Source: an uncultured delta proteobacterium
Lineage (GTDB): Bacteria; Desulfobacterota; Binatia; UTPRO1
Assembly (NCBI GenBank): GCA_963761995.1
Contig: CAVXIU010000014.1
Location: 13,622-77,621 of the forward strand
Direction of reading: 5' to 3'
DNA: 64,000 nucleotides
Shown: piece by piece, positions 36,583 to 63,820 of the stretch
Layout of the letters: each line of letters opens with the position of its first letter
Position numbering within the stretch: the stretch's first letter is position 1
Position numbers and translations under genes: made by a program
The notes under the pieces: model-generated
The model's input: only the letters and a program-made list of their open reading frames with translations
Told to the model about the DNA's origin: nothing
The model's database searches: none

Positions 36583-36815
36583 CCACGGGGTCCAATCCGG
36601 GGTCCAAACTGAGGGCAACCGAGCCCAACTCAGGACAACTCGAACCCGCTCTAGACGGCTGAATCCGCTTCCACACAACCAGAACCTTCCGGCTGGGGGC
36701 CGGGCGGTCGCAGGTTCAAATCCTGTCTCCCCGACTCAAAGCTCCTGCAACTAGCATTGTTCGCACAAACGGTGTAGCGACGATACGGGGTCCAAATTGG
36801 ACATCCGGGGTCCAG
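36583..36815 (+). repeat. att-like junction 1: arm repeats plus the 3' 46 nt of tRNA-Pro(GGG) (36689-36734)
   Basis: CCGG-CTGGGGG-CCGGG anticodon arm, GCAGG-TTCAAAT-CCTGT T-arm, CTCCCCGA acceptor strand; no 5' half. CGGGGTCCAA at 36586, 36598, 36786, and CGGGGTCCAG at 36806. Confidence 0.88.
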
Positions 36816-37110
36816 TTTCTGCAATCGGGCGAGAAACGGTGCTTGGCGCGGTGGTGCCGATTCCGGGCGATTGTGCGCACCCGGTTCCGATCGCACAGAA
36901 TCGACCATGTTCGAACGTCTATCGAGAGCGCGCGAGACTCAAGCTCTCGGTCACGATGCGCGGGGGGTGCGCGTGCAGGAGCCCGAACGCGTGCCGACGC
37001 GATGTTCGATGTCGGCCAGCGCCAAAGCCCACAGGTGCGGCGGGAGAGAGCGAGTCTGCGGCTGATCTCGTCACGCGCGATGAGGGGCTGATGGCGTGGG
37101 CGGTCCTGTG

Positions 37111-37644
37111 TCATCTCGCGCGGACGACGGTCACGCTGAAGGCGTCGCGTTGGCGCTTGAGCGCGTTCATGTCGCCGTCGAACTCGCCGATGCGCACGAT
37201 GCCGGCGAAGTACGGCGCGTCGCTGTCGTAGTAGAGGACGAAGTCGCCACCGGGTGCCCAGTAACCGATGTCTCCGGCGGCGGGATCGTGCCCGTCGGGC
37301 GCACCGTCGAGCGACAGCTTCCGGGGGAGGGGCGCGGTCTTCTCCACGTTGTTGTGGTCGCGAAACGTGAGCGTCAGGGGCAGTTGAGCGGCGAGATCGC
37401 GGGCCGTGGCGTTTTCGTGCAGCCGCGCCGTGAGCTGCGTGTCACCGAACGTGATCCGGATCGGCGTGCCATCCGGGGCGCCGGGCTCTTCCTGGGCGGA
37501 GGTCGGGCCCGGGGCGGGCGTGCTCCGCTCGGGTGTGTCGGCGGCCTGGTCGTCGTCTGCGCCTCCGCAGGCCGGGAGTGTCATGGCTGCGAAGAGCGCG
37601 ATCGCGAGTGTGTGGCGACGGAGCGTGCGGTTCGTCGTCGGCAT
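37111..37644 (-). CDS. Cyclophilin-like fold lipoprotein
   Basis: Lipobox LPAC; ENATARDLAAQLPLTLTF...NVEK...GDIGYWAPGG...YY. Confidence 0.85.
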   Translation of the reverse strand: MPTTNRTLRRHTLAIALFAAMTLPACGGADDDQAADTPERSTPAPGPTSAQEEPGAPDGTPIRITFGDTQLTARLHENATARDLAAQLPLTLTFRDHNNVEKTAPLPRKLSLDGAPDGHDPAAGDIGYWAPGGDFVLYYDSDAPYFAGIVRIGEFDGDMNALKRQRDAFSVTVVRAR

Positions 37645-37661
37645 GATCCGCGCATTGCGCT

Positions 37662-38429
37662 TCACTGCGCCGTATAGCCCCCGTCTACGGGCAGCGCGAC
37701 CCCGTGCACGAAGCTCGCGCCCGGGCTGCAGAGCCACAGGACGGCGGCGGCGATCTCGTCCCCGCGGCCGAGGCGGCCGATGGGCTGGTTTGCCTCGGCT
37801 TCGGCGAGGTCGAGCTCGCCCTTGGCGATCATGTCGGTGACCATCGGTGTGTCGATCGTGCCGGGACAGACGGCGTTGATCTGGACGCCGCGTGGCGCGT
37901 ACTCCAGCGCGGCGCTCTTGGTGAGGCCGAGAACGCCGTGCTTCGTGGCGTGGTAGGAGGCGCGGCCGGGGAGGCCGACGAGGCCGCCGAGCGACGAGCA
38001 ATTGACGATCGCGCCGCTGCCCTGATCGCGCATCTGGCGGAGCTCGTGCTTCATGCAGTTCCAGACGCCGCGGAGGTTGATCGCCGTGACCCGCTCGAAG
38101 CGCTCGGCCGATTCGTCGGCGGCGTCGGAGGGCGGGATCATGATCCCCGCGTTATTGAAGGCCATGTCAAGACGGCCGAAGCTCTCGACGGTGCGCGTGA
38201 CGAGCGCCGCGACCTGCGCCTCGTCGGCCACGTCGCAGGCAACGCCGAGCGCCTGATGGCCCGCCGCGGTCAGCTTGTCGGTGGCCGCGCGCAGCGCGTC
38301 CTCGTTGAAGTCGGCGAGGACCACGGCGGCGCCCGACTGGGCGAAGGCGAGAGCCGTGTCGAGCCCCATGCCGCCGGCGGCGCCGGTGACGACGGCGACT
38401 TGACCGGTGAAGTCGTATGTCGGGTTCAC
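37662..38429 (-). CDS. SDR-family oxidoreductase
   Basis: TGAAGGMG, NNAG, YHATK, NAVCPG. Confidence 0.95.
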   Translation of the reverse strand: MNPTYDFTGQVAVVTGAAGGMGLDTALAFAQSGAAVVLADFNEDALRAATDKLTAAGHQALGVACDVADEAQVAALVTRTVESFGRLDMAFNNAGIMIPPSDAADESAERFERVTAINLRGVWNCMKHELRQMRDQGSGAIVNCSSLGGLVGLPGRASYHATKHGVLGLTKSAALEYAPRGVQINAVCPGTIDTPMVTDMIAKGELDLAEAEANQPIGRLGRGDEIAAAVLWLCSPGASFVHGVALPVDGGYTAQ

Positions 38430-38833
38430 GCGGACCGACCGCCGCTGTACTGCTCGTCGGTGACGTGCTCGCCCCAGGTGACGGGGCTGCCGTTCTCGTC
38501 GTTCTGCTGCATGGCGATGTGCACCATGAAGCGGTTGGGCGCGGCGCCGTGCCAGTGGTTCTCGCCGGGCTCGAAGAAGACGCGGTCGCCGGGACGGATC
38601 TCCTCGATCGGGCCGCCTTCGCGCTGGCACAGGCCAACGCCTTCGGTGACGAAGATCGTCTGGCCGTGCGGATGTGTGTGCCACGCGGTACGCGCGCCGG
38701 GCGTGAAATGCACGCTCGCGGCGGCAAAGGTGGAGGTCGCCTCGGGGGTCGCGACGGCGTCGACGTAGACGTCGCCGGTGAACCAGTCGGCGGGCCCTTT
38801 CTGGGTGTCGATGCTGCTGTGGGTGATCTGCAT
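38426..38833 (-). CDS. Cupin domain protein
   Basis: FTPGARTAWHTHPHGQ...ENHWHGA. Confidence 0.92.
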   Translation of the reverse strand: MQITHSSIDTQKGPADWFTGDVYVDAVATPEATSTFAAASVHFTPGARTAWHTHPHGQTIFVTEGVGLCQREGGPIEEIRPGDRVFFEPGENHWHGAAPNRFMVHIAMQQNDENGSPVTWGEHVTDEQYSGGRSA

Positions 38834-38875
38834 CTCGCTGTTCCGTGTGGGTTTGTTGAGGGTGTCTGCGCGGGC

Positions 38876-39256
38876 CTAGGGGCGGGGCACGAGCCGAAGC
38901 GTGGTGGCGCGCGCTTCAGCGGTGACCATCGGCTGGACGTAGCTGGGGTAGCGCGCGTACTTGTTCAAGTAGCCGGCGTCGACGGCATCGTTGGCGGCGT
39001 CGTCGGCTTCGGCGAACTCGACGTCGCGCTCGACGCCGCCGGCGCTGATGTGTCCCTGGCGCCGCGCCTTCGCGGCGCGGTACCAGGCGCCGGCGTCGCC
39101 GCGCCAGGAACGCACGTACAGCTCGTCGCCGGCGCGGACGACCCAGATGAGCACCGCCCGGCCGGCGCGACCGTCGGCGCGCAGCGGCTGGACGGTCAGC
39201 TCCTCCGCCTCGCCGACGCGCGCGAGTTCGTCGCTGGTCCAGGCGGTCGCGGTCAT
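38876..39256 (-). CDS. DUF2255-family protein
   Basis: WTSDELARVGEAEEL, IWVVRAGDELYVRS, DAVDAGYLNKY. Confidence 0.8.
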   Translation of the reverse strand: MTATAWTSDELARVGEAEELTVQPLRADGRAGRAVLIWVVRAGDELYVRSWRGDAGAWYRAAKARRQGHISAGGVERDVEFAEADDAANDAVDAGYLNKYARYPSYVQPMVTAEARATTLRLVPRP

Positions 39257-40287
39257 GGCCGCACCAGCACCTTGATCGACTCGCGGTCGGCCATCGCGCG
39301 GTAGCCGTCCGGCACGCCATCGAGGTCGACGGTGCGATCGAAGACGCGGCCCGGCTCGATGGTGCCCTCCAGGATGTCGGGCAGCAGGTCGCCGATGTAG
39401 GCGCGCACCGGCGCGGGCCCGCCGCCGACTTTGACGTTCTTGAAGAACATCGGCTGCGCCAGCGGGATGGTCTCGTAGTGCGGGACGCCGACGCGCCCGA
39501 CCCCGCCGCCCGGCCGCGCGATCGCCACCGATGTCTCTGTGGCGTGGTCGGTGCCGACGCACTCCAGCACGCCATGCACGCCAGCGCCGCCCGTGAGCTC
39601 CATGACCCGCTGAACGGCCTCCTCGCCGCGTTCCGCGACGACGTCGGTGGCGCCGAGCTCGCGCGCCAGCCTGGTGCGGTCCTCGTGACGACCCATGATG
39701 ATGATCTGCTCGGCGCCGAGGCGCTTGGCGGCGATCACGCCGCACAGCCCGACCGCGCCGTCGCCGACGACCGCCACGGCATCCCCGGCCTTGACGCCGG
39801 CGACCACCGCGGCGTGATGGCCGGTCCCGAGCACGTCGGAGAGCGTGAGCAGCGACGGCATCAGCGCGTCTTCCTCGCCGACCGGCAGCGGGTACAGCGT
39901 CCCGTCGGCCAGGGGGACTCGCAGGGCCTCGGCCTGGGCTGCGCCCGTGCTGAGGCCGTCGAAGAAGCCGCCGTGCGCGCACGCCGTATGGAGCCCCTCA
40001 TGACAGAAGGCGCACGTTCCGTCGGAGAAGGCGAATGGCATCACGACCAGATCGCCGCGTTTGATCGTGCGGACGTCCGCGCCGACGTCCTCGACGAGGC
40101 CGATCGCCTCGTGGCCCATCGGTCGGCCGGTCTCGGTCGGCTCCAGGTCGGCGTAGGGCCACAGGTCGCTGCCGCAGACGCAGGCGCTCGTGACGCGGAT
40201 GATCGCGTCGGTCGGCTCGACGATGGAAGGATCCGGGACGTCCTCGATGCGGACGTCGCCGGCGGCATACATCAGGGTGGCTCGCAT
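39253..40287 (-). CDS. Zinc-dependent alcohol dehydrogenase family (MDR)
   Basis: CVCGSD, GHE, CAFCHEGLHTAC, VGDGAVG. Confidence 0.95.
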   Translation of the reverse strand: MRATLMYAAGDVRIEDVPDPSIVEPTDAIIRVTSACVCGSDLWPYADLEPTETGRPMGHEAIGLVEDVGADVRTIKRGDLVVMPFAFSDGTCAFCHEGLHTACAHGGFFDGLSTGAAQAEALRVPLADGTLYPLPVGEEDALMPSLLTLSDVLGTGHHAAVVAGVKAGDAVAVVGDGAVGLCGVIAAKRLGAEQIIIMGRHEDRTRLARELGATDVVAERGEEAVQRVMELTGGAGVHGVLECVGTDHATETSVAIARPGGGVGRVGVPHYETIPLAQPMFFKNVKVGGGPAPVRAYIGDLLPDILEGTIEPGRVFDRTVDLDGVPDGYRAMADRESIKVLVRP

Positions 40288-40335
40288 GGCTCTAGCTCCT
40301 GTTCTCGAAGTCGTTCATTCGCGCCAGACGACGCA

Positions 40336-41193
40336 TCAGGCGACCGCCTTCGCGTCCTCGTGGGCCAGGCTGGTCGACAGCTCGCGGTGCGCGTCGACCT
40401 GCGCGAGCAGCAGTAGCGCCTTGTCCTCGACGCCCTCGACGACGTCCTCGCCGGCGGCCCAGCGCAGCGGCGGCTCGGCGGACTCGGCCAGCTGCACGAG
40501 CGCCTGGGCGAGCTTGGCCGGATCACCCGCCTGTGTGCCATTCATCGAGGCCCAGAACGCGTTGATCTGCGCGCGGGTGTCGTCGTAGTCGTCGATCGAC
40601 AGTTCGCCGAAGGTGGTCGACTCGGGCGTCAGCAGCTCGGTGCGGAAGAAGCCGGGCTCCACGATCATCGTCCGGATCCCGAACGGCTGCACCTCGCCGG
40701 TCAGGGATTCCATCCAGCCCTCCAGCGCGAACTTCGACGCCGCGTAGGCCGAGCCGGACGGGCTGCCGATCACACCGGCGCCCGAGGAGATCGATACGAC
40801 CAGGCCGGAGCGCTGCCGGCGCATCACGGGCAGCACTGCACGGGTGACCGTCATCGGGCCGAACAGGTTCACCTCGAGCTGCGCGCGCACCTGCTCGGTC
40901 GTGAGCTCCTCGAAGAAGCCGGCCAGGAAGCTCCCGGCGTTGTTGAGCAGCACGTCGATACGGCCGAAGCGCTCGACGGCAGCCGCCGCGGCGTCCTCCG
41001 CGCTGTGCGGGTCGGTCACGTCGAGCGCGGTCACGAGCAGCTTCTCGTGCTCGCCGACGGCTGAGCGGACGGTGTCGGGGTCGCGGCCGGTGGCCACGAC
41101 GTTGTGACCGGCGGACAGGGCCGCGCGGGCGAACTCCACGCCCATGCCGCGACCGGCGCCGGTGATGAGCCAGGTCTTCGTCATGGGCGTCAA
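40336..41193 (-). CDS. SDR-family oxidoreductase
   Basis: TWLITGAGRGMG, NNAG, YAASK, VEPG. Confidence 0.95.
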   Translation of the reverse strand: MTPMTKTWLITGAGRGMGVEFARAALSAGHNVVATGRDPDTVRSAVGEHEKLLVTALDVTDPHSAEDAAAAAVERFGRIDVLLNNAGSFLAGFFEELTTEQVRAQLEVNLFGPMTVTRAVLPVMRRQRSGLVVSISSGAGVIGSPSGSAYAASKFALEGWMESLTGEVQPFGIRTMIVEPGFFRTELLTPESTTFGELSIDDYDDTRAQINAFWASMNGTQAGDPAKLAQALVQLAESAEPPLRWAAGEDVVEGVEDKALLLLAQVDAHRELSTSLAHEDAKAVA

Positions 41194-41255
41194 AGTAGAT
41201 CGGCCCTTGGCTCGGAAAGAGGGGCTGCCAGCACCCCTCAGCTAGCCTCGGGCGC

Positions 41256-42098
41256 GTGGATCGCCGGCGCGAGATCCGTGAGTTCCTGATGTCGCGCCGG
41301 GCGCGGCTGACGCCCGAGCAGGCCGGGCTCTACGTGCCGGAGGGCGACGTTCGACGGGTGCCGGGGCTGCGCCGCGAGGAGGTGGCCACCCTCGCCGGCG
41401 TGAGCGCGGACTACTACACCCAGCTCGAGCGGGGCGACGTCGACGGAGCGTCCGACGGCGTCCTCAACGCCGTCGCGCGCGCCCTGCGGCTCGACGACGC
41501 CGAACGGCTGCACCTCTTCGACCTCGCCCGCCCGGAGGCGACGACACGCCTGGCGTCGTCCGGCGGCGCGATCCGCCCGAGCGTGCAGCGGGCACTCGAC
41601 GCGTTCACCGGGGGCTTGGCGCTCGTGCGCAACCGACGCTACGACTACCTTGCCGCCAACGACCTGGCCCGCGCAGTGTATGCGGAGGTTTTCGACGGCC
41701 GGATCGGCCCGCCGAACCACGTGCGCTACGTGTTCCTCGACGACCGCGCCCGGGACTTCTTCGACGACTGGCCGGCCGTGGCGCATGACACGGCGCGCAT
41801 CCTGCGCTCCGAAGCGGGACGAGACCCGCACGACCCAGGACCCGCTGAGCTCATCCAGGAGCTTTCGCAGACCAGCGCCGAGTTCCAGGCGCTCTGGTCA
41901 CAGCACGACGTGCGTCTCCCCGCAGCCGGCCTGCACCGTTTCCGCCACCCGCTCGTGGGCGACCTCGATCTCGTCTTCGAGGCCGCGGCGCTGCGGGCAG
42001 ACCCCGGCCTGACTCTTCTCCTGGCCACCGCGGAACAGGGCTCGCCGACCGAAGCGGCACTGCGACGGCTCGCAGCGAAGACCGCGCGCGTCGAGTGA
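41256..42098 (+). CDS. XRE-family HTH regulator with MmyB-like ligand-binding domain
   Basis: RRVPGLRREEVATLAGVSADYYTQLERG; FQALWSQHDV...HPLVGDL. Confidence 0.92.
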   Translation: MDRRREIREFLMSRRARLTPEQAGLYVPEGDVRRVPGLRREEVATLAGVSADYYTQLERGDVDGASDGVLNAVARALRLDDAERLHLFDLARPEATTRLASSGGAIRPSVQRALDAFTGGLALVRNRRYDYLAANDLARAVYAEVFDGRIGPPNHVRYVFLDDRARDFFDDWPAVAHDTARILRSEAGRDPHDPGPAELIQELSQTSAEFQALWSQHDVRLPAAGLHRFRHPLVGDLDLVFEAAALRADPGLTLLLATAEQGSPTEAALRRLAAKTARVE

Positions 42099-42416
42099 CC
42101 ACGGGGTCCAATACGGGGTCCAAACTGAGGGCCACCGAGCCCAACTCAGGACAACTCGAACCCGCTCTAGACGGCTGGTTCCGCTTCCACACAACCAGAA
42201 CCTTCCGGCTGGGGGCCGGGCGGTCGCAGGTTCAAATCCTGTCTCCCCGATCAACTCCCTGCAAAGATCGCTTAACTCGACTGCGGTGTATCGCGGGTAC
42301 GTTGCGGGGTGCAAATCGGACTGGATGGCGCGAAAGGGGTCGATTGCGGGGCGGCACCGTTTCAGCGGACCTGCGACCACCCGGTCACTTGCACCCCGTC
42401 GACCAATTGCACCCCG
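42099..42416 (+). repeat. att-like junction 2 (tRNA-Pro 3' fragment 42205-42250)
   Basis: 42099-42250 matches 36583-36734 with four substitutions in 152 nt; CGGGGTGCAA at 42305, with inverted copies at 42389 and 42407. Confidence 0.9.
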
Positions 42417-42603
42417 CCGGTCGCCGTGTTACTGGCCGCGCGTTTCGGTTTCGCTTTCGCGCATTGCGATGCGAGCGCGTCCGTCGGCGGGACGCCCGCT
42501 CGCTCGTCGCCTCAAGCGGGCGTCTCGATGTACCTGCGCGAAGCGACGCCGGCCCGTAAGGCGATCCTTCAGCGACGCGGCGGCTTGGCCGGCGGGCCAG
42601 GAT

Positions 42604-45519
42604 TCACTCGGCGCCCGGGTCCGGTGCGGCCGTAGATCTCGGGCGTTCGAAGGGGTCGCGGTCGTGTTGGCTGAGGCGCGTGATGAATTCGACGCGGGAG
42701 CTGACGCCGAGCTTGGCGTAGATGTTGCGGGTGTGGGTTTCGATGGTCTTCAGGCTGAGGTAGAGCTCTCGGGCGATCTCGGCGTTGCGTTTGCCGGCGC
42801 GCACGAGCGCGGCGACCTCGCGCTCGCGCGGCGAGAGCGATGCGATGCCTTCGGCGTGTCGAGGGGCGGTGGGGCCACGACGCCAGGTGCGGACGCCGAG
42901 GCGGCGCAGCTCGCGGGTGGCGTCGTCGCGCAGTCGTTGTGCGCCGAAGCGATCGAAGTCGCTGGCGGCCTGCTTGAGCGCGGCCGCGCCGCGGCTGCGG
43001 TCGCCGGTCCGCGCGAGCGCGACACCCTCGATCGTGCGCGAGCGGGTGGCTTCGAGTGGTGCCTCGCTGATTGCCGCGCCGCGCGCCGCCGTCTGGGCAG
43101 CTTGTTGTGGTCGTTCTGCTGCGAGGAGCGTCGCGGCGCGGGTGCGCTCGGCGAGCGCGTGCGCGAGGGGGATGCCAGTCGCGTCGGCGGCGGCGTCGAG
43201 GCGGGCGGCGGTTCCTTCGGCGGCCGCCAGGTCCGTGGCTTGCAGCGCGGCGTCGGCGAGGGCGGCCCAGACGAGTGGGCGCTCGGCGGGCACGACGTCG
43301 GGAAGCTCGGGGCCGCCGGCGGCCTCAAGGATGGTGGCGATGCCCGTCTCGGGCCGGGTGTCGGCCTGGATGAGGCCGAGCGTCCAGCCGGCCCGTGCGC
43401 GCCAGAGTCGTTGCGCGGCGCCGAGCCGCACGGCCTCGCGCGCGTCGCGTTCCGCGCCCGCGCGGTCGCCGCTCAAGTGGCGGGCCAGCGCCAGTTGATC
43501 ATGAGTGCCGAGCAGCAGTCCGGGGTTGCCGGACGCTCGGGCGGCCTCGACGGCCTCCTCCCCGATCGCGATCGCCTCGGGAATGCGGCCGAGCTGGATC
43601 AGTGGATGCAGCTGCGTTCCGAGCAGGACGGGGATGAAGTACCCATGACCGCTCTGATGCCCGATCGTGACTCCGCGGCGCAGCAGGCGGAGCGCTTCCT
43701 CGTAGCGGCCGGCGTAGCCCAGGGCCAAGCCGAGGTCGCCGAAGCCCAGGTAGTACTGGCCGACCTCGGCGTCGTCCGCCTCGGCGAGGAAGGCGAGGAC
43801 GCGGTCCACGGGCGCGCGTGTGTGTTCGGCGTTGCCCTCGGCGGCAAGCGCGAGCGCGAGCACCCCGAACCCGCCGTGCTCGAGCAGGCGATCCTCGAGA
43901 CCGCGGGCAACGGCCACGGCTTCAGTGGCGAGGGCCGCGACGCGTTCCAGTCGCAGCTCGCAGAACTCCAGTCCCGCCAGCGACATCCGCAGCTTGAAGC
44001 CGACACGAGACGGGCCATCGGGTTCCTCGGCGAATGCCGCCTGCATGCGACGGCGCGGCTCTGAGAGCGGTTGCCCCGACCACACCTCGATCGCCGCACG
44101 ACTGCAGATCAACGACCCGCGCTGCTCCCGCGCGTCGACCGGAAGCAGCTCCAGCGTCTCGGCGAGCACGGCGTCAGCCGCCTTGAGCTGGCCGGCGCCG
44201 AACAGCGCGTAAGCCCGCTGCTCGAGCAGCTCGATCCGTTCCGTCGGGTCGGCGTCGTGCGGCAGCAGCCGCAGAGCGCTCTGGAGGTAGCGCGCCGCCG
44301 TGGCGGGTGCTTGCTCGAACACTCGGTTGGCGGCGTCGGCCAGCAGGTCGATCGCCGCGCGATCGCCGCGCTGGGCCGCGTGCTCGACGTGATGTGCGCG
44401 CTCGACCGGCCCGGCGCCATGGCGGGCGAGCGCGTCCGCGGCGCGGGCGTGCGCGCGCAGCCGCCACGCGCCGGGAGCGGCGGCGTAGACGGCGTGGCGA
44501 AGCAACGGGTGGCGGAAGACGAACCCGCGGGGCGTCGCGGCGGGGCGGATCAGCGCGGGCTCGAGCAGTGCGTCGAGGGCCGCAAGCGTGGCGTCCTCAT
44601 CCAGCTCGCCGACGTCGGCGACCAGCTCGGGCTCGAACGGCTCGCCGACAACCGCCGCGGCCTCCACCGCGCGCCGGGCTTCGCCGGGCAGCGCGTCGAG
44701 CTCGCCCGCCAGGGCTGCCGCCACGGCGGCTGGGATCCCCGCGCCACCCGGCCCGACCGTCGCGCCCGACCCTCCGTCAGGCCGCGCTCGCGCGAGCTGC
44801 TCAAGATAAAACGGGTTGCCGCCGCTCAGCTCGTAGAGCGCTGAAACGCGATCGTCACCGCAGAGGGCGGCCGCGTCGGCCCGGCTGAGCGGTCCCGGCG
44901 CGAGCCGCTGGGCACGGTCGGCGCGGACCGCCTCGCCGAGCGCGGCGACCAGCGCATCCGAAACCTGGCCCTCGCGGTAGGCGAGCGCGAGCAGCACGCG
45001 GCCCTCGGGTGGGCGACGGGCCAGCGCCGCCACCAGGTCGAGCGAGGCCGGATCGGCCCAGTGCACGTCATCGAGGCACAGCACCAGCGGACGCGCGAAT
45101 GCGACTCGCGTGAGCAGGCCGCGCAGCGCGCGCTGCACGACATAGCGCTCGGCCGGCGCGGCAGGCGCCCCGAGCACATCAGCGAACGCCGGCAACGCCA
45201 CCGCGAGCGCCGTGAGCTCATCGCCCGCCAGCCGCCGCAGCCGCGCCACCTCCAGCGCCTCCAGGTGCCGGCCGAGCGCATCGACCCACAGCCCATAGGG
45301 CGCGTCGCGCTCGAACTCGGTGGCACGCCCACCGAGCACCAGGCAGCCGCGCCGCTCGGCCTCCCGGGACAGCTCGCCGAGCAGCCGCGTCTTGCCGATC
45401 CCCGCCTCGCCTGCCAGCTCCACCAGCGCACTCCGCCCGCCCTCCACGAGCGCCAGCGCCCGCGCTAACGCCCGGAGCTCGGGCTCCCGCCCCACCAATC
45501 GCCACGCGTGCTCCGACAC
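42604..45519 (-). CDS. Large ATP-binding LuxR-family regulator (AAA_16 + TPR-like + LuxR HTH)
   Basis: GEAGIGKT Walker A, LDDVHWAD, GGNPFY, LSPREREVAALV...LYLSLKTIETH. Confidence 0.93.
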   Translation of the reverse strand: MSEHAWRLVGREPELRALARALALVEGGRSALVELAGEAGIGKTRLLGELSREAERRGCLVLGGRATEFERDAPYGLWVDALGRHLEALEVARLRRLAGDELTALAVALPAFADVLGAPAAPAERYVVQRALRGLLTRVAFARPLVLCLDDVHWADPASLDLVAALARRPPEGRVLLALAYREGQVSDALVAALGEAVRADRAQRLAPGPLSRADAAALCGDDRVSALYELSGGNPFYLEQLARARPDGGSGATVGPGGAGIPAAVAAALAGELDALPGEARRAVEAAAVVGEPFEPELVADVGELDEDATLAALDALLEPALIRPAATPRGFVFRHPLLRHAVYAAAPGAWRLRAHARAADALARHGAGPVERAHHVEHAAQRGDRAAIDLLADAANRVFEQAPATAARYLQSALRLLPHDADPTERIELLEQRAYALFGAGQLKAADAVLAETLELLPVDAREQRGSLICSRAAIEVWSGQPLSEPRRRMQAAFAEEPDGPSRVGFKLRMSLAGLEFCELRLERVAALATEAVAVARGLEDRLLEHGGFGVLALALAAEGNAEHTRAPVDRVLAFLAEADDAEVGQYYLGFGDLGLALGYAGRYEEALRLLRRGVTIGHQSGHGYFIPVLLGTQLHPLIQLGRIPEAIAIGEEAVEAARASGNPGLLLGTHDQLALARHLSGDRAGAERDAREAVRLGAAQRLWRARAGWTLGLIQADTRPETGIATILEAAGGPELPDVVPAERPLVWAALADAALQATDLAAAEGTAARLDAAADATGIPLAHALAERTRAATLLAAERPQQAAQTAARGAAISEAPLEATRSRTIEGVALARTGDRSRGAAALKQAASDFDRFGAQRLRDDATRELRRLGVRTWRRGPTAPRHAEGIASLSPREREVAALVRAGKRNAEIARELYLSLKTIETHTRNIYAKLGVSSRVEFITRLSQHDRDPFERPRSTAAPDPGAE

Positions 45520-45545
45520 CGTGGCATGAGCCTACGCCTGGACCA

Positions 45546-45576
45546 GATCGGGGGTGGGATCAGGGGTGCCCCTGAT
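45546..45576. promoter_or_regulatory. Candidate operator: GATC(G/A)GGGGT direct repeats plus an ATCAGGGG-TG-CCCCTGAT palindrome
   Basis: Located in the gap between the divergent LuxR and DUF427 genes. Confidence 0.45.
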
Positions 45577-47273: not shown

Positions 47274-47296
47274 GAACCGAACCACAAGGAGTTGCC

Positions 47297-55075: not shown

Positions 55076-55115
55076 ACGTCACGACCGCCGGCGAACGGCA
55101 TCCTGTCGCGCCGGC

Positions 55116-57580: not shown

Positions 57581-58069
57581 TCAGCGCGTCGGCGCCGTCA
57601 TCGCCCCGGGCTTGACTGGATGCGGGTAGGCGTCGGCGCGGGACTGGAAGGAGGATTCTCGATCACGCCGCGGCGGAGCTCGATGGCGCGCCGGATCGTC
57701 GGATCGCGATCCCACCCGGCCTCCCCGGCCATCACCGCCGGGATGAAGGGGATCAGCGCCTCGCTGATCTCCCAACTTGCCGAGCTCCACAGGTAGGACG
57801 GGGTGTGGTCGACGGCCTCATCGCAGGAGACGTTGACGAAGAGGCTGGCGGGCGCGAACCGATTGAGCTCGTCCCGGTGGACGAACGTGAGCGGGTGATC
57901 GGTGTCCTGCAGGATGCAGTTGACGAAATGTCCTGCGCGGCGAGGAACTCGGCGACCGTGGGGGGCGCGTCGCCGCCGAGCGCGACGAGCCGCCCGGGCG
58001 GCTCCGGAGCGTCTTGCGTGAGGTCCCGACCAATCCGAGCGTCAACGCCGCCGTGTCGCCCTGCGTCAT
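57581..58069 (-). pseudogene. ceo: N5-(carboxyethyl)ornithine synthase-like remnant with internal deletions
   Basis: LTLGLVGTSRK N-terminus joined to VNCILQDTDHPL...VNVSCDE|AVDHTPSYLWSSASWEISEAL...IRRAIE...SFQSR. Confidence 0.7.
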
Positions 58070-58267
58070 GCGCCGAGGTTCACAGCCGGCAGGTGTCGTC
58101 GCATCGGGGTGATGGCCGACGAGCGGCGGGGTGAGCTACTCAAATCGTGAGGACGTGGCCGGTGTCGACGCGGGTGAGTGGCGGACTACTGATCAGACAT
58201 GGGAACCCTCGCCGATGGCGGGAGGCATGGCGCACACGTAGCGTGCATCGGGAAAGGAGGTGCCGAC

Positions 58268-58699
58268 ATGACCACCACGAACGCCACTCTGCTCGACCTC
58301 AGTCAGCGCCGTGTCAACGAGGTGATGCATCAGGGAATCGTCGGCTGTGCGCCGGACACACCACTGTCGGAGGTGGCTCGGCTGATGAGCGAGCACTGCA
58401 TCCACTGCGTCGTCGTCGGCCGCCTCGCCGTCGACGGCCACGGCACACGCTTCCTGTGGGGTGTCGTGTCCGACCTCGACCTCGTCCGCACCGCCGCCGG
58501 CGGTGAGGAGACGACCGCGGGACAGATCGCAGCCACCGAGTTCGTCAGCGCCCGGCCGTCCGACTCGCTGGCGGACGTCGCGCGCATCATGGGCGAGCAC
58601 GACATCGCGCACCTGGTCGTGGTCGACGAGCGCGACCGGGAGCCGATCGGGATCATCTCCACGCTCGACCTGGCAGCCGCGGTCGCCGATACCGCCTAG
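58268..58699 (+). CDS. CBS domain-containing protein
   Basis: Paired CBS motifs (GVVSDLDL, GIISTLDL); AAGGAGG RBS. Confidence 0.9.
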   Translation: MTTTNATLLDLSQRRVNEVMHQGIVGCAPDTPLSEVARLMSEHCIHCVVVGRLAVDGHGTRFLWGVVSDLDLVRTAAGGEETTAGQIAATEFVSARPSDSLADVARIMGEHDIAHLVVVDERDREPIGIISTLDLAAAVADTA

Positions 58700-58822
58700 C
58701 GCGCCCGGTTCCACGGCCCGGTGCCAGGCACACCCGTACTCCGTACCGACGCCCCGGGTATTCCATACCGATGTTCGGGGTCGGGCCCGGCCGTACGGTC
58801 GAAGGCGACCAAGGAGGCGTTC

Positions 58823-59806
58823 ATGCCACAGACCACGGACCGGCACGCGCAGCGCCGCGCGCTTCCGGTGCTCGTGCGCGGCCGCCGCGGCGGCGGGATT
58901 GGCCGCATGCTCGGCGCGGTCTCCGCGGATGCCCGGATGCTCCGCGCGATATCGGCAGACGTTGCCCACGCCGCCGACCCGCGACGTGTCGCGCACAGGC
59001 CCCCGGCCGGCGACGCCTTCGAGCTGCGCGACCCCGAGTACATCGCGCGCACGCTGCCCGCGCTGCGAGTCATGGCGGACGTCTGGTTCCGCGCCGAGGT
59101 GCGCGGGCTGGAGAACATCCCGTCGCGCGGACCGGTGTTGCTCGTCGGCAACCACTCGGGCGGCACGTTGATCGCCGACACGTTCATCTTCTCGCAGGCG
59201 TTCTACGACCACTTCGGTCCCGAGCGTGAGTTCTTCCAGCTCGCGCATGACCTCGTGTTCAAGGCGCCGGGCATCCGGGCCATGCTCACGCCGTACGGAA
59301 CGGTGCCGGCGTCACCGGAGAACATGCGGCGCGCGCTCGCACGCGGCGCCGCGTTGCTCGTCTATCCCGGCGGCGACCACGAGACCTACCGGGCCAGCTG
59401 GCGCTCTGCCGAGATCGATTTCGCCCGCCGGACCGGCTTCGTCCGGCTCGCGTTGAAGCACGGCGTACGAATCGTCCCCGTCGTTTCGATCGGCGGCCAG
59501 GAGACGGCGCTGTTCCTCGGTCAGGGCGAGCACATCGCGCGGCTGCTGCACCTCCACCGGCTGCTGCGGATCGACGTCGCGCCGGTTCAGATCGCGCCGC
59601 CGTGGGGCGTCACGGTGCTCGACCTCCCGGGCCGCGTGCCGCTGCCGGCGAAGATCTCCATTGAGGTGCTCCCGCCCATCGACCTCTATGAGGAGCTCGG
59701 GGGCGTCGGCGGCGATCCCGACGAGGGCTACGAGCTCGTCACAGGGCGGATGCAACACGCGCTGCGTGAGCTCGACGAGGCGCGCGCGCTGCCGCTGATC
59801 GGCTGA
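58823..59806 (+). CDS. Lysophospholipid / DAG acyltransferase family protein
   Basis: LLVGNHSGG (HxxxxD region), VYPGGDHE, RTGFVRLA; AAGGAGG RBS. Confidence 0.9.
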   Translation: MPQTTDRHAQRRALPVLVRGRRGGGIGRMLGAVSADARMLRAISADVAHAADPRRVAHRPPAGDAFELRDPEYIARTLPALRVMADVWFRAEVRGLENIPSRGPVLLVGNHSGGTLIADTFIFSQAFYDHFGPEREFFQLAHDLVFKAPGIRAMLTPYGTVPASPENMRRALARGAALLVYPGGDHETYRASWRSAEIDFARRTGFVRLALKHGVRIVPVVSIGGQETALFLGQGEHIARLLHLHRLLRIDVAPVQIAPPWGVTVLDLPGRVPLPAKISIEVLPPIDLYEELGGVGGDPDEGYELVTGRMQHALRELDEARALPLIG

Positions 59807-60053
59807 GCGGGCGCGCCTCGCGGCCCGGGCGCGATCGCGAGCACGCCGTGAACACGCACTCCACGGCGACGGCGAGCACGACAGGGCGGTCGGCCGGTTT
59901 GAGGGGTTCCAGCCGTGGACGGAAGATCGGCCTCGGCGGTTCGAGGACCGGTGCGGAAAGTCCGGTCGAGCCGCGTCGAGCGAGAGGTTCCCTCTCAGCC
60001 GTGGCCGCACCGCTCGCTCGGGGACGCGACAACCGCTGTAGGTTTCACCCGAC

Positions 60054-60812
60054 GTGGCGACGGAGACCGCGAGGCGGGCTTTCGAGACGGCGCGGCACGA
60101 CCGCTGGTGGTTGCCGCCCCTCGCGAGCGGGCTGGGGCTGGCGGCCTTCGGCGTCTACGCGCTCGTGGCCGCCGCGCTGGGCGACGACTATCGCTACATC
60201 GAGGGCGGCGCCGACTACCTGTCGCCCTTCTACTCGCCTGATCTGGCGGGCTGGGGGATCGACGTCCCGTTCTCCTCGGCCTTCCTCGTGATCTGGGTCC
60301 CGCTCGCGTTCCGGGCCACGTGTTACTACTACCGGAAGGCGTACTACCGGGCGTACTTCATGGCTCCGCCGGCCTGCGCCGTGCGGTCGCCGCGCCAGGG
60401 GCGCTATCGCGGCGAGGCGGGATTCCCGTACATCCTCATGAACGCCCACCGCTACTTCCTGTTCCTCGCCACGATCGTGCTGGGGTTTCTCTGGTACGAC
60501 GCCGTGCGCGCGTTCTTCTTCGACGGCTCGTTCGGGGTGGGAGTCGGCTCGCTGGTGCTACTCGCCAACGCTGTTCTCCTGTCGCTGTTCACATTCGGCT
60601 GCAACTCGGTCCGCCACCTGGTCGGCGGCCGGCTGGACTGCTTCACCTGCTCCGTGCGCGCACGGGCGCGCCACACGCTGTGGCGCGGGGTCGGCGTGCT
60701 CAATGGCCGGCACATGGAGTGGGCGTGGATCAGCCTCGTCTGGGTCGCGCTCGCCGACCTGTACGTGCGCCTGGCGGCGGCTGGGGTCTTCGACGACCCG
60801 AGGATCGTCTGA
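60054..60812 (+). CDS. Succinate dehydrogenase membrane subunit (actinobacterial Sdh1 type)
   Basis: LSPFYSP, FRATCYYYRKAYYR, PPACAV, NAHRYF, GCNSVRH; lies upstream of sdhA. Confidence 0.85.
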   Translation: MATETARRAFETARHDRWWLPPLASGLGLAAFGVYALVAAALGDDYRYIEGGADYLSPFYSPDLAGWGIDVPFSSAFLVIWVPLAFRATCYYYRKAYYRAYFMAPPACAVRSPRQGRYRGEAGFPYILMNAHRYFLFLATIVLGFLWYDAVRAFFFDGSFGVGVGSLVLLANAVLLSLFTFGCNSVRHLVGGRLDCFTCSVRARARHTLWRGVGVLNGRHMEWAWISLVWVALADLYVRLAAAGVFDDPRIV

Positions 60813-62534
60813 GTGGAGCGGCACGACTACGACGTGGTCGTGATCGGCGCCGGTGGCGCCGGGCTGCGCGCGGCGATCGCGGCCTCGGAAGCCGGCGCGC
60901 GCACCGCGCTCGTGTGCAAGTCGCTGCTCGGCAAGGCCCACACGGTCATGGCGGAGGGCGGCGTCGCGGCCTCGTTCGGCAACGTCTCACCCGAGGACGG
61001 CTGGCAGGTGCACTTCCAGGACACGATGTTCGGAGGCAAGTACCTCAACAACTGGCACATGGCTGAGCTTCACGCGCGCGAGGCGCCGGAGCGCGTGCGC
61101 GAGCTCGAGCAGTGGGGCGGTGTCTTCGACCGCACGCCCGATCGCAAGATGTCGCAGCGCGCGTTCGGCGGACACACGTACAAGCGCCTCGTGCACATCG
61201 GCGACCGCACCGGCCTCGAGCTCATCCGCACGCTGCAGGACAAGGCCGTGCACTCGGGCATCGACGTCTACATGGAGTGCACGATCACGCGGCTGCTCAA
61301 GGACGGGGAGCGCGTGTGCGGCGCCGTCGCCTACTGGCGCGCCACGGGCGAGTTCGTCCGCTTCGCGGCGCGCGCGCTCGTGCTCGCCACCGGCGGCGCG
61401 GGGCGCTGCTGGCGGATCACCTCGAACTCCTGGGAGTGCACCGGCGACGGCCACGCGCTGGCCTACGAGGCCGGTGCCGAGCTGATCGACATGGAGTTCG
61501 TCCAGTTCCATCCCACCGGGATGGTGTGGCCCCCCGGTGTCGTCGGCCTGCTCGTCACGGAGGCCGTGCGCGGCGAGGGAGGCATCCTGCGCAACGCGAC
61601 CGGCGAGCGCTTCATGGAGCGCTACGACCCCAAGCGGCTGGAGCTCTCGACGCGCGACGTCGTGTCGCGCGCGATATTCACCGAAGTCAAGGAGCGCCGC
61701 GGCACCCCGCACGGGGGCGTCTTCCTCGACGTCTCCCACCTCGGCGACGAGACGGTGCGCACCAAGCTGCCGAGCATGTACGACCAGTTCATCGAGCTCG
61801 CCGGCGTCGACATCACTCGCGAGGCGATGGAGGTCGGCCCCACCTGCCACTACGTCATGGGCGGGATCCGAGTCGACTCGGAGACCGGTCAGAGCAGCGT
61901 CGAAGGCCTGTTCGCGGCGGGCGAGTGCTCGGGAGGGATGAACGGCGCCAACCGGCTCGGTGGGAACTCGCTCTCGGACCTTCTCGTGTTCGGCAAACGC
62001 ACCGGTGAGAGCGCGGCGAAGTACGGCGCCGGCGCGCAGGAGCCGCGGATCGACGAGGCGCAGGTGGCCGACGGCGTGGCCGAGATGAGTCGCCACCTCA
62101 CCGGCCCGGGCGACGAGGATCCGTACCGGTTGCACGACGAGCTGAAGGCCGTGATGCAGGAGGACGCGGGCATCTACCGCGACGCGGGCCTCCTCGACTC
62201 GGCCCTCGGCCGCATCACGGAGCTGGAACGACGCGCCCGCTCGGCGCGCGCGCCCTCCGGGTCGGCGGCTTACAACCCCGGCTGGAACCTCTGCCGCGAC
62301 CTGCGCAACATGCTGATCGTGTCAGAGGCCGTGGCGCGCGCCGCGCTGTTGCGCAAGGAGAGTCGCGGCGCGCACAGCCGGCTCGACTTCCCCGACTACG
62401 ACGACTACTGGGCGGAGCACAACATCGTGGTGCGCAGGACGCCGGACGGCATGGCGGTCGAGCCGCGTCCCGTCGTCAAGACCTCGACGCTCGCCACGCT
62501 GGTCGAGGCGCGCAAGGAGGCGGAGCGGGCATGA
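60813..62534 (+). CDS. sdhA: Succinate dehydrogenase / fumarate reductase flavoprotein subunit
   Basis: VIGAGGAG, KAHTVMAEGG (FAD-His), QFHPTG, TEAVRGEGG, GANRLGGNSL, ESRGAH. Confidence 0.96.
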   Translation: MERHDYDVVVIGAGGAGLRAAIAASEAGARTALVCKSLLGKAHTVMAEGGVAASFGNVSPEDGWQVHFQDTMFGGKYLNNWHMAELHAREAPERVRELEQWGGVFDRTPDRKMSQRAFGGHTYKRLVHIGDRTGLELIRTLQDKAVHSGIDVYMECTITRLLKDGERVCGAVAYWRATGEFVRFAARALVLATGGAGRCWRITSNSWECTGDGHALAYEAGAELIDMEFVQFHPTGMVWPPGVVGLLVTEAVRGEGGILRNATGERFMERYDPKRLELSTRDVVSRAIFTEVKERRGTPHGGVFLDVSHLGDETVRTKLPSMYDQFIELAGVDITREAMEVGPTCHYVMGGIRVDSETGQSSVEGLFAAGECSGGMNGANRLGGNSLSDLLVFGKRTGESAAKYGAGAQEPRIDEAQVADGVAEMSRHLTGPGDEDPYRLHDELKAVMQEDAGIYRDAGLLDSALGRITELERRARSARAPSGSAAYNPGWNLCRDLRNMLIVSEAVARAALLRKESRGAHSRLDFPDYDDYWAEHNIVVRRTPDGMAVEPRPVVKTSTLATLVEARKEAERA

Positions 62535-63265
62535 CCGCACGTGCGCTGCGCCTGTGGCGCGGCGACGCCTCCGGCGGCGAGCTCGTCGACTACGAGGTCG
62601 AGGACGTCTCGGGCATGGTCGTGCTCGACGCGGTGCTCGAGGTCCAGCGCACCCAGGCGCCGGATCTCGCCGTGCGCTGGAACTGCAAGGCCGCGAAATG
62701 CGGCTCCTGCAGCGCCGAGGTCAACGGCCGCCCGCGCCTGATGTGCAAGACGCGGCTCGACCACCTGCCCGCGGAGGAGCCGGTCCGCGTCGAGCCGCTG
62801 CACGCGTTCCCGGTCATCCGCGACCTGGTGACCGACGTGAGCTGGAACTACGAGGTCAACAAGCGGATCCCGCCCTTCACGCCAGCGCCCGACGCCGAGT
62901 GGTCGATCGGCCAGGAGGACGTCGATCGCATGAGCGAGTTCCGGAAGTGCATCGAGTGCTTCCTGTGCCAGGACGTCTGCCACATCCTGCGCGACCACGG
63001 CATGCATTCCCGCTACTTCGGCCCGCGGTTCCTGGTGCGCATCGCAAGCCTGGAGATGCATCCGCTCGACACGCTCGACCGGCTCGACACGGTCGTGGAC
63101 GAAGGCGGCCTCGGCCTGTGCAACATCACGAAGTGCTGCAGCGAGGTGTGCCCGGAGGGCATCCACATCACCGACAACGCGATCATCCCGCTCAAGGAGC
63201 GCGTGGTCGACCAGCGCTACGACCCGCTGCTGCGTTTGCTCCGCAGGCTCCGGTCCCGCCGATAA
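62531..63265 (+). CDS. sdhB: Succinate dehydrogenase / fumarate reductase iron-sulfur subunit
   Basis: CKAAKCGSC...C, CIECFLCQDVC, CNITKCCSEVCP. Confidence 0.96.
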   Translation: MTARALRLWRGDASGGELVDYEVEDVSGMVVLDAVLEVQRTQAPDLAVRWNCKAAKCGSCSAEVNGRPRLMCKTRLDHLPAEEPVRVEPLHAFPVIRDLVTDVSWNYEVNKRIPPFTPAPDAEWSIGQEDVDRMSEFRKCIECFLCQDVCHILRDHGMHSRYFGPRFLVRIASLEMHPLDTLDRLDTVVDEGGLGLCNITKCCSEVCPEGIHITDNAIIPLKERVVDQRYDPLLRLLRRLRSRR

Positions 63266-63337
63266 GTACATCGCCGCAGCCGGTGCTCTGCCTTTCACCG
63301 ATGCGAGCGGGCCGGGACCCTGGCAGCGTGCCTGATC

Positions 63338-63586
63338 ATGAACAGGACAGAACTGGCCCGTGCGCTGGTGAACGAGGGAGCAGTCGAGACGCAGCAGGAC
63401 GCGGAGACGGCCCTCGACGTCCTGGCGTCGGCGATCTGGCACTCGCTCGAGCAGCACGAGGAGCTCGATTGGCCCGGGGTGGGGCACTTCGGCGTGGCAC
63501 CGGCCCCGCGACGGCGGCGGACCGTCACGTTCCGCCCGGCGAGCGAGCTCGAGGTCGCCGTCAACCGGCATCGCGTCGAGACCTGA
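63338..63586 (+). CDS. HU/IHF-family DNA-binding protein (short, divergent)
   Basis: MNRTELARAL...LDWPGVGHFGV...VTFRPASEL. Confidence 0.8.
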   Translation: MNRTELARALVNEGAVETQQDAETALDVLASAIWHSLEQHEELDWPGVGHFGVAPAPRRRRTVTFRPASELEVAVNRHRVET

Positions 63587-63592
63587 GCTCGA

Positions 63593-63820
63593 CGGGGTCC
63601 AAATTGAGCGCAACCGAGAGCAACTCAGCGCAACTCAGTCCGCTCTAGGCGGCTGAATCCACTCCGATACGCCTGGATCGTTCCGGCTGGGGGCCGGGCG
63701 GTCGCAGGTTCAAATCCTGTCTCCCCGATCACAGAAGGGCCCGCAAACGCGGGCCTTTCTTCGTTCCGTCGCTCGCCAAGATCGCCCGACGGGGTTTCAA
63801 CTGTGCACCGGGGGTGTCAA
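63593..63820 (+). repeat. att-like junction 5 (tRNA-Pro 3' fragment 63683-63728)
   Basis: CGGGGTCCAA at 63593, phased CAAC(T) repeats, intact 46-nt core, downstream CGGGGTTTCAA and GGGGTGTCAA. Confidence 0.9.
63733..63763 (+). terminator. Intrinsic terminator directly after the tRNA 3' fragment
   Basis: AGAAGGGCCCGC-AAAC-GCGGGCCTTTCT hairpin followed by a T-rich tail. Confidence 0.75.

Follow-up and report, generated by a model that had tools for sequence, protein, structure and literature searches.

Tandem tRNA-Pro(GGG) junctions bounding integrase-free modules in a soil Solirubrobacteraceae chromosome: a probable accretion array served by family integrases

Tandem accretion of ICE- and IME-type elements, together with the derivatives known as CIMEs, has been described in streptococci (Pavlovic 2004; Bellanger 2011; reviewed in PMC5704250). 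About half (15) of the Dehalococcoides ssrA islands have no integration module, and cis-mobilization was proposed for these; island content varies between strains (PMC3146451). Fragmented integrases and additional partial tRNAs mark older integration events in Prochlorococcus islands (10.1101/2020.12.28.424599), and the Islander survey, which accepted a tandem member only if it carried its own integrase, found arrays of three or more members four times (PMC4383910). Tandem stacking at tRNA genes is known, but since tools such as Islander count only integrase-bearing members, arrays composed almost entirely of recombinase-free modules are systematically missed, and one like that described here would be missed or merged by design. 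In the attP sites of phage lambda, mycobacteriophage L5 and pSAM2, repeated arm-type sites flank a short core at fixed distances, and the corresponding integrases carry an N-terminal extension; both pSAM2 and L5 target tRNA genes.

The window, by which we mean the whole 64-kb stretch of DNA that was analysed, contains five direct repeats (36584-36735, 42100-42251, 47925-48063, 53153-53303 and 63586-63729), each made up of a P arm and a core and each closing with the part of tRNA-Pro(GGG) that runs from the anticodon stem to the discriminator. The array extends past the window: its contig, C14, holds nine full copies, all on the plus strand (E = 1e-22 to 1e-35), plus one arm-only fragment. Every copy couples a left arm of ~105 nt bearing GGGG(TC/TG/AA)CAA sites to the final 46 to 47 nt of the tRNA gene. 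Exact matches to GGGGWSCAA number 12 in the window, all of them inside the five junctions, against a chance expectation of 1, and none of 100 shuffles reached 12. The copies are 62-97% identical to one another, with flanks unique to each; copy 3 has an 11-nt deletion in its core, one 12-nt arm repeat is missing from copy 5 and junction 9 has a degenerate 3' end. A preliminary description of this DNA had reported five direct repeats of the tRNA-Pro 3' part, none of them whole, with an upstream arm repeat at a fixed distance, and it was borne out on both points: ARAGORN found no whole tRNA in the window, and the arm sites lie 88-100 nt upstream of the tRNA part. The downstream arm that it had assigned to four junctions is clear at junctions 1, 2 and 4 (36787, 42306 and 53355), degenerate at junction 5 and absent at junction 3.

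The attP of this family is ~350 bp long and has three parts. Its P arm carries two arm-type sites in direct orientation, spaced by 12 bp, followed by three CAAC boxes at 10-bp phasing and a GCTCTAG box; its core comprises 46 nt that match the tRNA exactly between the anticodon loop and the 3' end; and its P' arm carries one or two direct sites, to which some families add two inverted ones. The block of identity begins at the anticodon loop, and the evidence supports the view that the window repeats are att junctions of units integrated in tandem at tRNA-Pro(GGG), with the GGGGxxCAA repeats as putative integrase-binding sites.

Junction 1 opens with a P arm (36584-36688, plus strand) that forms the right end of a large unit on its left, and shows arm sites GGGGTCCAA at 36587-36595 and 36599-36607, CAAC boxes at 36616, 36626 and 36636 and the GCTCTAG box at 36648-36654. 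The core (36689-36735, plus strand) is, over its final 46 nt (36690-36735), 100% identical to an intact gene on contig C15. The P' arm (36736-36917, plus strand) has a CCTGCAA box and two arm sites (36787-36795 and 36807-36815). It constitutes the left end of module 1, assigned to family LE-1, and is conserved until about +180, beyond which cargo differs. In module 1 this cargo (36918-42098) encodes a cyclophilin-like protein, an SDR, a Zn-ADH, another SDR and an MmyB-type regulator whose stop codon (42096-42098) lies directly against the P arm of junction 2; three other contigs contain this gene cluster, there without att sites. Junction 2 (42100-42251, plus strand; TC-type sites at 42103 and 42115, core at 42205-42251) is 97% identical to junction 1 over 152 nt. 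It continues into the TG-type left end of module 2 (family LE-2; 42252-42459, plus strand), where one site is direct (42306-42314) and two are inverted (42389-42397 and 42407-42415), and the cargo (42460-47924) comprises a 975-aa AAA/LuxR regulator on the minus strand, a DUF427 protein and a SnoaL-like protein. Junction 3 (47925-48063, plus strand; TG-type sites at 47928 and 47940) has a decayed core (48028-48063) with substitutions in addition to its deletion, and no P' arm behind it. Module 3 (48064-53152) encodes an esterase, an ArsR/DUF5937 regulator, an SDR, a RibD_C protein and a SnoaL protein; its GC3 is below that of the neighboring modules. Junction 4 (53153-53303, plus strand; sites GCGGTTCAA and GGGGAACAA) has a core with one mismatch (53257-53303) and leads into the LE-1 left end of module 4 (53304-53482, plus strand; site at 53355-53363), which is 73% identical to that of module 1 and 85% identical to a left end in the relative G411. 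The module 4 cargo (53483-63585) includes an aminotransferase fragment, PPK2, a SulP/STAS permease, a CBS protein, an acyltransferase, an FAD flavoprotein and an HU-like gene (63266-63586) set directly against the following P arm. At junction 5 (63586-63729, plus strand; core at 63683-63729) a sole arm site remains (63594-63602), and module 5 begins with a decayed integrase-type P' arm (63730-63885, plus strand) that ends in the vestige of an integrase start, RPRGSGQLYLK (63847-63885), whose offset equals that of the integrase start on C15.

On C15, an intact tRNA-Pro(GGG) gene (10181-10254), identical to the junction 1 core in its 46-nt 3' part, is followed by TC-type P' sites and a tyrosine integrase gene (about 10374-11570) in the orientation of the array. 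The gene is open, encodes 400 aa with no stops (PF00589, E = 9e-37, positions 2-169 of 172) and starts 138 nt past the T-loop anchor. Such a pair had been predicted upstream on the array contig; tRNA and integrase were both found, oriented as expected, on C15, which is a separate contig not joined to C14. The enzyme is a lambda-type tyrosine integrase with an N-terminal extension, sits inside a module beside its own P' arm, and aligns with IntI4 solely over the C-terminal 60 residues. The integrase in hand is TC-type only, and TG- and AA-type modules are also present in the array. The arrangement of tRNA and adjacent integrase recurs in 11 relatives, Solirubrobacteraceae that include S. soli DSM 22325. 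Other elements show a second layout, in which the integrase gene lies at the extreme right, immediately ahead of the P arm. Integrase N-termini may differ with arm type (RTPDG or RTADG with TC arms, RTPGG with A-type arms), a hint drawn from genes that in most relatives are frameshifted (long-read MAGs). Candidate "integrase-only mini-modules" (L005, L099 and similar) were rejected, there being no tRNA or core upstream of those integrases; these loci are instances of the second layout. Both C14 and C15 belong to a soil actinobacterium of the Solirubrobacteraceae within a chimeric bin, whose 7-Mb main contig, C6, has its own full tRNA set and looks like another organism. Searches with an att model and an att pattern in 400 genomes of the bin's family, order and class gave no match, which is uninformative because that kinship follows C6; relatives were reached through the integrase sequence instead.

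None of the at least eight modules in the array has a recombinase of its own. On the whole of C14, PF00589 gave no match and tblastn with two family integrases gave a best E of 0.03; in modules 1-4, the PF00589 search and a relaxed tblastn, which returned noise apart from the module 5 vestige, found no integrase remnant. Pfam scans place solely metabolic, transport and regulatory genes in the four enclosed window modules, for which the preliminary description had noted no integrase, transposase, relaxase or phage gene, and loss of an own integrase by deletion, which it had named as counting against its reading, has left no trace in modules 1, 2 and 4 and is marked by the vestige in module 5. 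Modules carry 1-15 genes, encoded on both strands, and include regulators of their own. Integration and transfer genes are absent according to Pfam scans of module genes and, for modules 6-8 to the right of the window, according to three whole-genome family searches (PF00589, PF12728 and PF01580). Modules 1, 2, 4, 6 and 7 have a P' arm at the left end and a P arm at the right end with matching arm variants; modules 3 and 8 lack the P' arm. Neither excisionase HTH_17 (PF12728) nor FtsK/TraB-type (PF01580) domains were found on C14 or C15, and no transfer genes or conjugation module were seen. Junction 9 is a candidate for the terminal attR; the flank to its right shows no synteny with relatives.

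Several observations indicate that the modules are discrete units. Arm variants are concordant in 12 of 14 comparisons within a module and in 12 of 34 across a junction (the statistics, binomial p about 0.002 and Fisher p 0.0065, were computed on an interim count of 10/12). The integrase-less left ends fall into at least five families, conserved over 130-250 nt and followed by unrelated cargo in different genomes. Contig L113 is 98.7% identical to module 4 and junction 5 over 2305 nt, diverges right past ...CCCCGAT and continues into a left end different from that of module 5, so that the neighbor is switched exactly at the tRNA core; L101 and G411 show the same pattern at 92.5%. We rejected the reading of the L113 neighbor as module 6, i.e., a clean loss of module 5, since its TG-type left end is only related to that of module 6 (78% over 50 nt). 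At the level of sequence, these comparisons demonstrate modular behavior and the exchange of neighbors precisely at the core. The preliminary description had proposed comparing relatives for variable module number and order, and among close relatives both the number of modules and their content indeed differ completely: in G411 a single contig holds the tRNA and, spread over 87 kb, four junctions, a stretch in which PF00589 gave no match, G409 has four junctions, and close relatives whose flank proteins are 80-94% identical have no cargo in common. At least 120 soil metagenome contigs contain a junction, and among 46 such junctions with at least 700 nt downstream, an integrase follows in 4 cases and a P' motif without an integrase in 18.

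We propose that site-specific integrative units, all from one family, have accreted in tandem at the 3' half of tRNA-Pro(GGG) in a Solirubrobacteraceae chromosome, and that the resulting array consists mostly of non-autonomous, CIME-like modules served by family integrases; we put the probability of this reading at roughly two in three. It builds on the site architecture, on the cognate integrase found beside the same arms and on the modules that contain none. A lambda-type integrase with an N-terminal extension would recombine attP with the tRNA core, and every further integration at a core would create a junction to which the left unit contributes the P arm and the right unit the P' arm, with the core between them. 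Most units lack an integrase but have complete, mutually matched arms, and therefore appear as non-autonomous, CIME-like modules. These would be moved by the integrase of another module, either in trans or in cis along with a neighbor; on this reading they would still be excised and inserted, and would have some route between cells. A bolder version, which we regard as possible though doubtful, is that the integrase-less modules (P', cargo, P) form a self-propagating cassette class in soil Solirubrobacterales, with at least five left-end families and at least three arm classes (TC, TG and A), whose members, assembled around ordinary chromosomal gene clusters, are shuffled among tRNA-Pro arrays by the lambda-type integrases of other modules. 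If true, the system would be functionally analogous to gene capture by integrons, with a tRNA attB and arm-type attP sites as its building blocks.

The array could instead be an inert stack in which every module brought along an integrase that was subsequently deleted, leaving the repeats as scars. Decay is visible: about 11 integrase codons persist in module 5 at the expected offset, truncated integrases occur at three loci of relatives (L011, residues 1-90; L014, residues 21-114; and the fragment G409:C17:105236), junctions 3 and 9 are damaged and modules 3 and 8 have no P' arm; integrase loss by deletion does happen in this family, as module 5 illustrates. However, six of the eight modules keep a P' arm from which, the vestige in module 5 apart, the integrase is gone without trace, although in autonomous units the gene starts about 35 nt past the P' sites. 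The integrase-less left ends are moreover conserved families across genomes with differing cargo, a pattern not expected from independent random deletions. Seven of nine cores are identical to the tRNA or one mismatch from it, whereas arms differ by up to 38%, and a neighbor has been swapped exactly at the core between sequences 98.7% identical. On balance, we hold wholesale fossilization to be unlikely. That the repeats are collapsed or mis-joined by assembly, or form a family of structured tRNA-like RNA genes, is more improbable by far and hardly worth entertaining. The source is a chimeric long-read metagenome bin, and the contigs of one relative break at the tRNA core, but the divergence of the copies and their unique flanks speak against collapse, and the same junctions recur in independent assemblies and in JGI short-read contigs. 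The RNA-gene reading was rejected because an Rfam scan of the window gave no match and covariation is absent outside the tRNA-derived stems (covariation term +0.39).

The preliminary description had also called the locus an integron-like accretion platform. In a dedicated platform of this kind, a fixed integrase at the tRNA would capture promoterless cassettes singly, for expression from a common promoter. The layouts share a superficial likeness (one anchor site, many short recombinase-free units, sites on both sides), but this part of the description is overstated. The integrase is of lambda type and lies within a module, preceded by the P' arm of that module; at the tRNA of the G411 array there is no integrase, and in other elements the gene is at the far right end. 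This is not the integron arrangement of an IntI-type integrase beside attI with a cassette promoter heading the array; the sites combine lambda-type arms with a tRNA core rather than attC hairpins, the consensus fold showing only tRNA stems, without attC palindromes or covariation, and module genes run both ways behind no common promoter. We therefore consider an integron-like platform very improbable.

For the accretion array that we favor, the parts are visible together: a target tRNA, an intact cognate integrase, an attP of ~350 bp with typed arms, non-autonomous left-end families and natural neighbor exchange, in soil actinobacteria that belong to a large group on which hardly any studies exist. 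Integrase action in trans would fit this arrangement, and with a defined enzyme and defined sites the movement in trans of short recombinase-free modules as cassettes becomes a testable question. Orthogonal arm and integrase specificities, if confirmed, could serve as genetic tools.

The concept of stacking is not new, and is covered already by CIMEs and tandem accretion (PMC5704250) and by the Dehalococcoides ssrA islands (PMC3146451). As in CIMEs, att-bounded units without integration or transfer genes (here within the scope of the Pfam scans and the C14 family searches) stand in tandem with integrase-bearing units, and such composites can recombine at any pair of sites (PMC5704250). CIMEs are, however, described as single decayed ICE or IME derivatives beside one ICE, whereas this array strings together at least eight consecutive integrase-less units, with conserved left-end families of distinct arm architecture, no conjugation module seen and a Solirubrobacteraceae host; on an origin by deletion from an ICE or IME, the vestige in module 5 is to be set against the shared left-end families of modules 1, 2 and 4 that hold no integrase trace. 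Like the ssrA islands, whose tandem members are delimited within 100 kb by numerous direct copies of the 3' end of a single small-RNA gene (PMC3146451), the array works by repeats of a single target, but it is not a member of that class: those islands use the serine recombinase DsiB, a 20-bp tmRNA repeat and a 15-bp upstream motif (PMC3146451), whereas here a tyrosine integrase is paired with a 46-nt tRNA-Pro core and with arms of about 300 bp in which arm-type sites are repeated. In Prochlorococcus, too, older elements are pushed inward as new ones integrate at the same tRNA, with partial tRNAs separating neighbors, but tycheposons encode an integrase themselves, often together with other hallmark genes, and their remnants are described as degenerate rather than as intact integrase-less units with matched arms (10.1101/2020.12.28.424599). 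Tandem islands in Islander are likewise marked by tRNA 3' fragments, with attP centered on the anticodon loop in 2083 of 3919 islands (PMC4383910); our family shares with them an intact tRNA with displaced direct 3' fragments (on one contig in G411) and an integrase adjoining an att site, but the members of the array lack the integrase of their own by which Islander recognizes tandem members. The layout of arm-type sites is that of lambda, L5 and pSAM2, with putative arm binding here and at most 28% identity between the family integrase and phage integrases. Measured against these systems, the array is a large, well-preserved case of the known stacking of mobile DNA at one tRNA.

Five co-oriented repeats had been claimed for the window in the preliminary description, and repeat search and alignment recovered all of them at those positions, with tRNA-derived cores starting at 36689, 42205, 48028, 53257 and 63683 (junctions 1 to 5). 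Each of these five copies spans about 150 nt and consists of a P arm (about 105 nt) followed by a core (46-47 nt), which corresponds to the stretch of tRNA-Pro(GGG) between the anticodon stem and the discriminator base, both included. The P arm carries two GGGG(TC/TG/AA)CAA sites with 12 bp spacing, three CAAC boxes with 10-bp spacing and one GCTCTAG box. Exact matches to GGGGWSCAA occur 12 times in the 64 kb, against a chance expectation of 1.0, and all fall within the five junctions. ARAGORN found no whole tRNA in the window, nor did any Rfam family match there. The second arm site contains CGGGG (alignment A2, columns 15-19), a sequence complementary, like the tRNA's own 5' end, to the 3' acceptor strand of the core (columns 147-151); these columns are invariant, so covariation is uninformative either way. 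The bin comprises 18 contigs, with the window at 13622-77621 of contig C14, and the window holds just part of the array, because BLAST and profile searches of the whole bin located nine full copies on the + strand of C14, at 50.2, 55.7, 61.5, 66.8, 77.2, 78.4, 103.1, 117.2 and 122.8 kb. Between them lie eight modules of, in order, 5.5, 5.8, 5.2, 10.4, 1.2, 24.7, 14.1 and 5.6 kb. Some 1.2 kb beyond the right edge of the window, and 235 nt past junction 6, sits a solitary P-arm fragment without a core (C14:78822-78932, profile positions 6-118), suggesting a rearrangement, or homologous exchange from one junction to another.

The intact tRNA-Pro(GGG) and tyrosine integrase that had been predicted to lie upstream both exist, but on a separate contig (C15) instead of C14. 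The tRNA (C15:10181-10254) matches copy 1 at 100% identity across the 46-nt core, and is followed by two GGGGTCCAA sites and then by an open tyrosine integrase of 400 residues, which matches PF00589 (E = 9e-37) as well as central and SAM-like domains. Residues 1-90 matched no Pfam family and the first ~70 were reached by no structure match; solved Xer and Tn1549-type recombinases align over the core-binding and catalytic domains only, and phage integrases share at most 28% identity with the enzyme. The modules of the window had been described as integrase-free, and PF00589 is indeed absent from all of C14, where a deliberately lax tblastn search for integrase remnants with two family integrases as queries gave a best E of 0.03. 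No HTH_17 excisionase or FtsK/TraB-type genes were found on C14 or C15. Within the family, integrases occupy one of two placements, either right after the P' arm (the left end of a module), as on C15, or ending just before the P arm at its right end. The right-end integrases form a second clade, 55-60% identical to the C15 enzyme, seen in six metagenome and MAG loci (L099, L111, L115, L122, L004 and L005); the gap between their end and the P arm is 0-25 nt in some, and others lie up to ~4.5 kb upstream of that arm.

The organism carrying the array appears to differ from the one that dominates the bin. The 7.0-Mb contig C6 has its own full tRNA set, whose tRNA-Pro(GGG) reaches only 81% identity, and contains only paralogues of C15 proteins, at 26-48% identity. 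The left flank of C15 is syntenic with Solirubrobacteraceae loci at 60-94% protein identity, including those of S. soli DSM 22325 and the MAG G411, and some C14 genes match G411 at 90-92% identity. From synteny and identity we conclude that C14 and C15 belong to a single organism of the Solirubrobacteraceae that was binned together with a large, unrelated genome; the bin is chimeric. The junction family had no match among the bin's assigned relatives, a null result explained by the C14/C15 organism differing from that of C6, so that kinship follows the wrong organism.

Arm variants, neighbors and sequence conservation together mark the modules as discrete recombination units. On C14, the left (P') and right (P) ends of a module are TC/TC in modules 1 and 4, TG/TG in modules 2 and 6 and AA/AA in module 7. 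Overall, the variant is the same at both ends in 12 of 14 modules, and across the two arms of one junction in 12/34, about chance; the statistics for arm concordance were computed on an interim count of 10/12 (binomial p about 0.002, Fisher p 0.0065). Left ends without an integrase form at least five families, in all of which similarity ends 130-250 nt past the core and gives way to unrelated cargo. One (LE-1) unites modules 1 and 4 with three G411 modules and two metagenome contigs, and another (LE-2), with one direct and two inverted arm sites, unites module 2 with the metagenome locus L170 (89% identity) and one module of a second relative, G409. Neighbors also change at the core: along 2305 nt, the metagenome locus L113 matches the right end of module 4, its P arm and the junction 5 core at 98.7% identity, and it diverges directly after ...CCCCGAT, where a TG-type integrase-less left end stands in place of module 5. 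The same break separates L101 from G411 (92.5% identity). Finally, cores are better kept than arms, with seven of nine identical to the tRNA or differing by one mismatch while P arms are 62-97% identical. Within junction 5 itself, a 12-nt arm repeat is missing that L113 still has, and between the GCTCTAG box and the core (window 63650-63682) the two differ at 10/36 positions, the L113 version resembling junctions 1 and 2. This block of mismatches has the look of patchy gene conversion among the P arms of separate junctions.

Running a junction sequence model on integrase-bearing relatives located further arrays. A single 1.78-Mb contig of G411 carries a tRNA cluster, tRNA-Pro(GGG) and four full junctions across 87 kb, with no tyrosine recombinase anywhere in that stretch. 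The preliminary description had proposed comparing module number and order among relatives; the cargo of C14 and G411 is wholly unshared, although their flank proteins are 80-94% identical. G409 has four junctions, with an integrase in one module. A pattern scan found the junction on at least 120 metagenome contigs, and among the matches listed, 46 junctions had 700 nt or more of downstream sequence and were followed by an integrase (4), by a P' motif without an integrase (18) or by neither (24). Locus L011, a G411 contig ending inside the tRNA-Pro core, continues with a terminator, TC-type P' sites and an integrase cut after residue 90; 6 kb further on, in inverted orientation, lie genes that share 90-92% identity with those at the right end of C14 module 6.

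Decay is visible in both modules and junctions. At its start, module 5 carries an integrase-type P' arm that has degenerated, along with the peptide RPRGSGQLYLK, at an offset equal to that of the C15 integrase start (KRPYGSGQIYEK), and an EthD gene follows this vestige. G411 and G409 likewise contain truncated integrases. Modules 3 and 8 are without a P' arm, the core of junction 3 has an 11-nt deletion and junction 9 has a degenerate 3' end.

Cargo in the four window modules is of ordinary kinds. Module 1 encodes short-chain and zinc dehydrogenases, a cyclophilin-like protein and an MmyB-type regulator; module 2 an AAA/LuxR regulator, a DUF427 protein and a SnoaL-like protein; module 3 an esterase, an ArsR-type regulator, an SDR, a RibD_C protein and a SnoaL protein; and module 4 PPK2, a SulP permease, a CBS protein, an acyltransferase, an FAD flavoprotein and an HU-like protein. 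Behind the C15 integrase the cargo is metabolic too, with genes for Usp, a sigma factor, patatin and V/A-type ATPase subunits. The module 1 cluster (cyclophilin-like, SDR, ADH, SDR, MmyB regulator; window 37125-42098) recurs at 80-85% nucleotide identity on three long soil contigs (L212, L213 and L214), with different flanks in each and no att site beside it in any; homology stops exactly at the stop codon abutting the P arm. The HU/IHF-like DNA-binding gene (63266-63586; PF00216, E = 1.7e-7), whose end coincides with the start of the junction 5 P arm, could encode an accessory bending factor or be mere cargo. At the left end of module 4, a 120-residue class-III aminotransferase fragment on the minus strand (53606-53965; profile positions 183-263 of 403) is a pseudogene remnant. 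The stretch 324-36479 falls inside a large unit ending at junction 1, and Pfam assigns its genes to ordinary families (glutaminase, FtsX permease, histidine kinase, beta-lactamase-family, CN hydrolase, RTX and STAND/WD40). Within it, at 30369-35145, a 1275-aa BTAD/nSTAND ORF overlaps a 724-aa WD40 ORF in a different frame, probably a single long STAND-WD40 gene with a frameshift through assembly error or pseudogenization.

The best explanation for the array is that lambda-type integrative units of one family, mostly non-autonomous, accreted in tandem at tRNA-Pro(GGG); the arms would be bound by the integrase, and integrase-less modules may still be mobile. The earlier interpretation is partly supported: the tandem accretion of mostly integrase-less units at this tRNA stands, but the integron-like character does not. 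An IntI/attI/Pc head and attC sites are both absent, and the modules contain several genes, which lie on both strands. The concept of such an array is already known and matches CIMEs and accretion as described previously (PMC5704250). What makes this array notable is its size, the completeness of its sites, its typed arm classes and the identification of the enzyme. Islander requires an integrase in each tandem member, and arrays with at least three members number only four there (PMC4383910). Among described cases, the Dehalococcoides ssrA islands come closest, 15 of them being without an integration module (PMC3146451), and the tRNA islands of Prochlorococcus have a way of working like that of the C14 array (10.1101/2020.12.28.424599).
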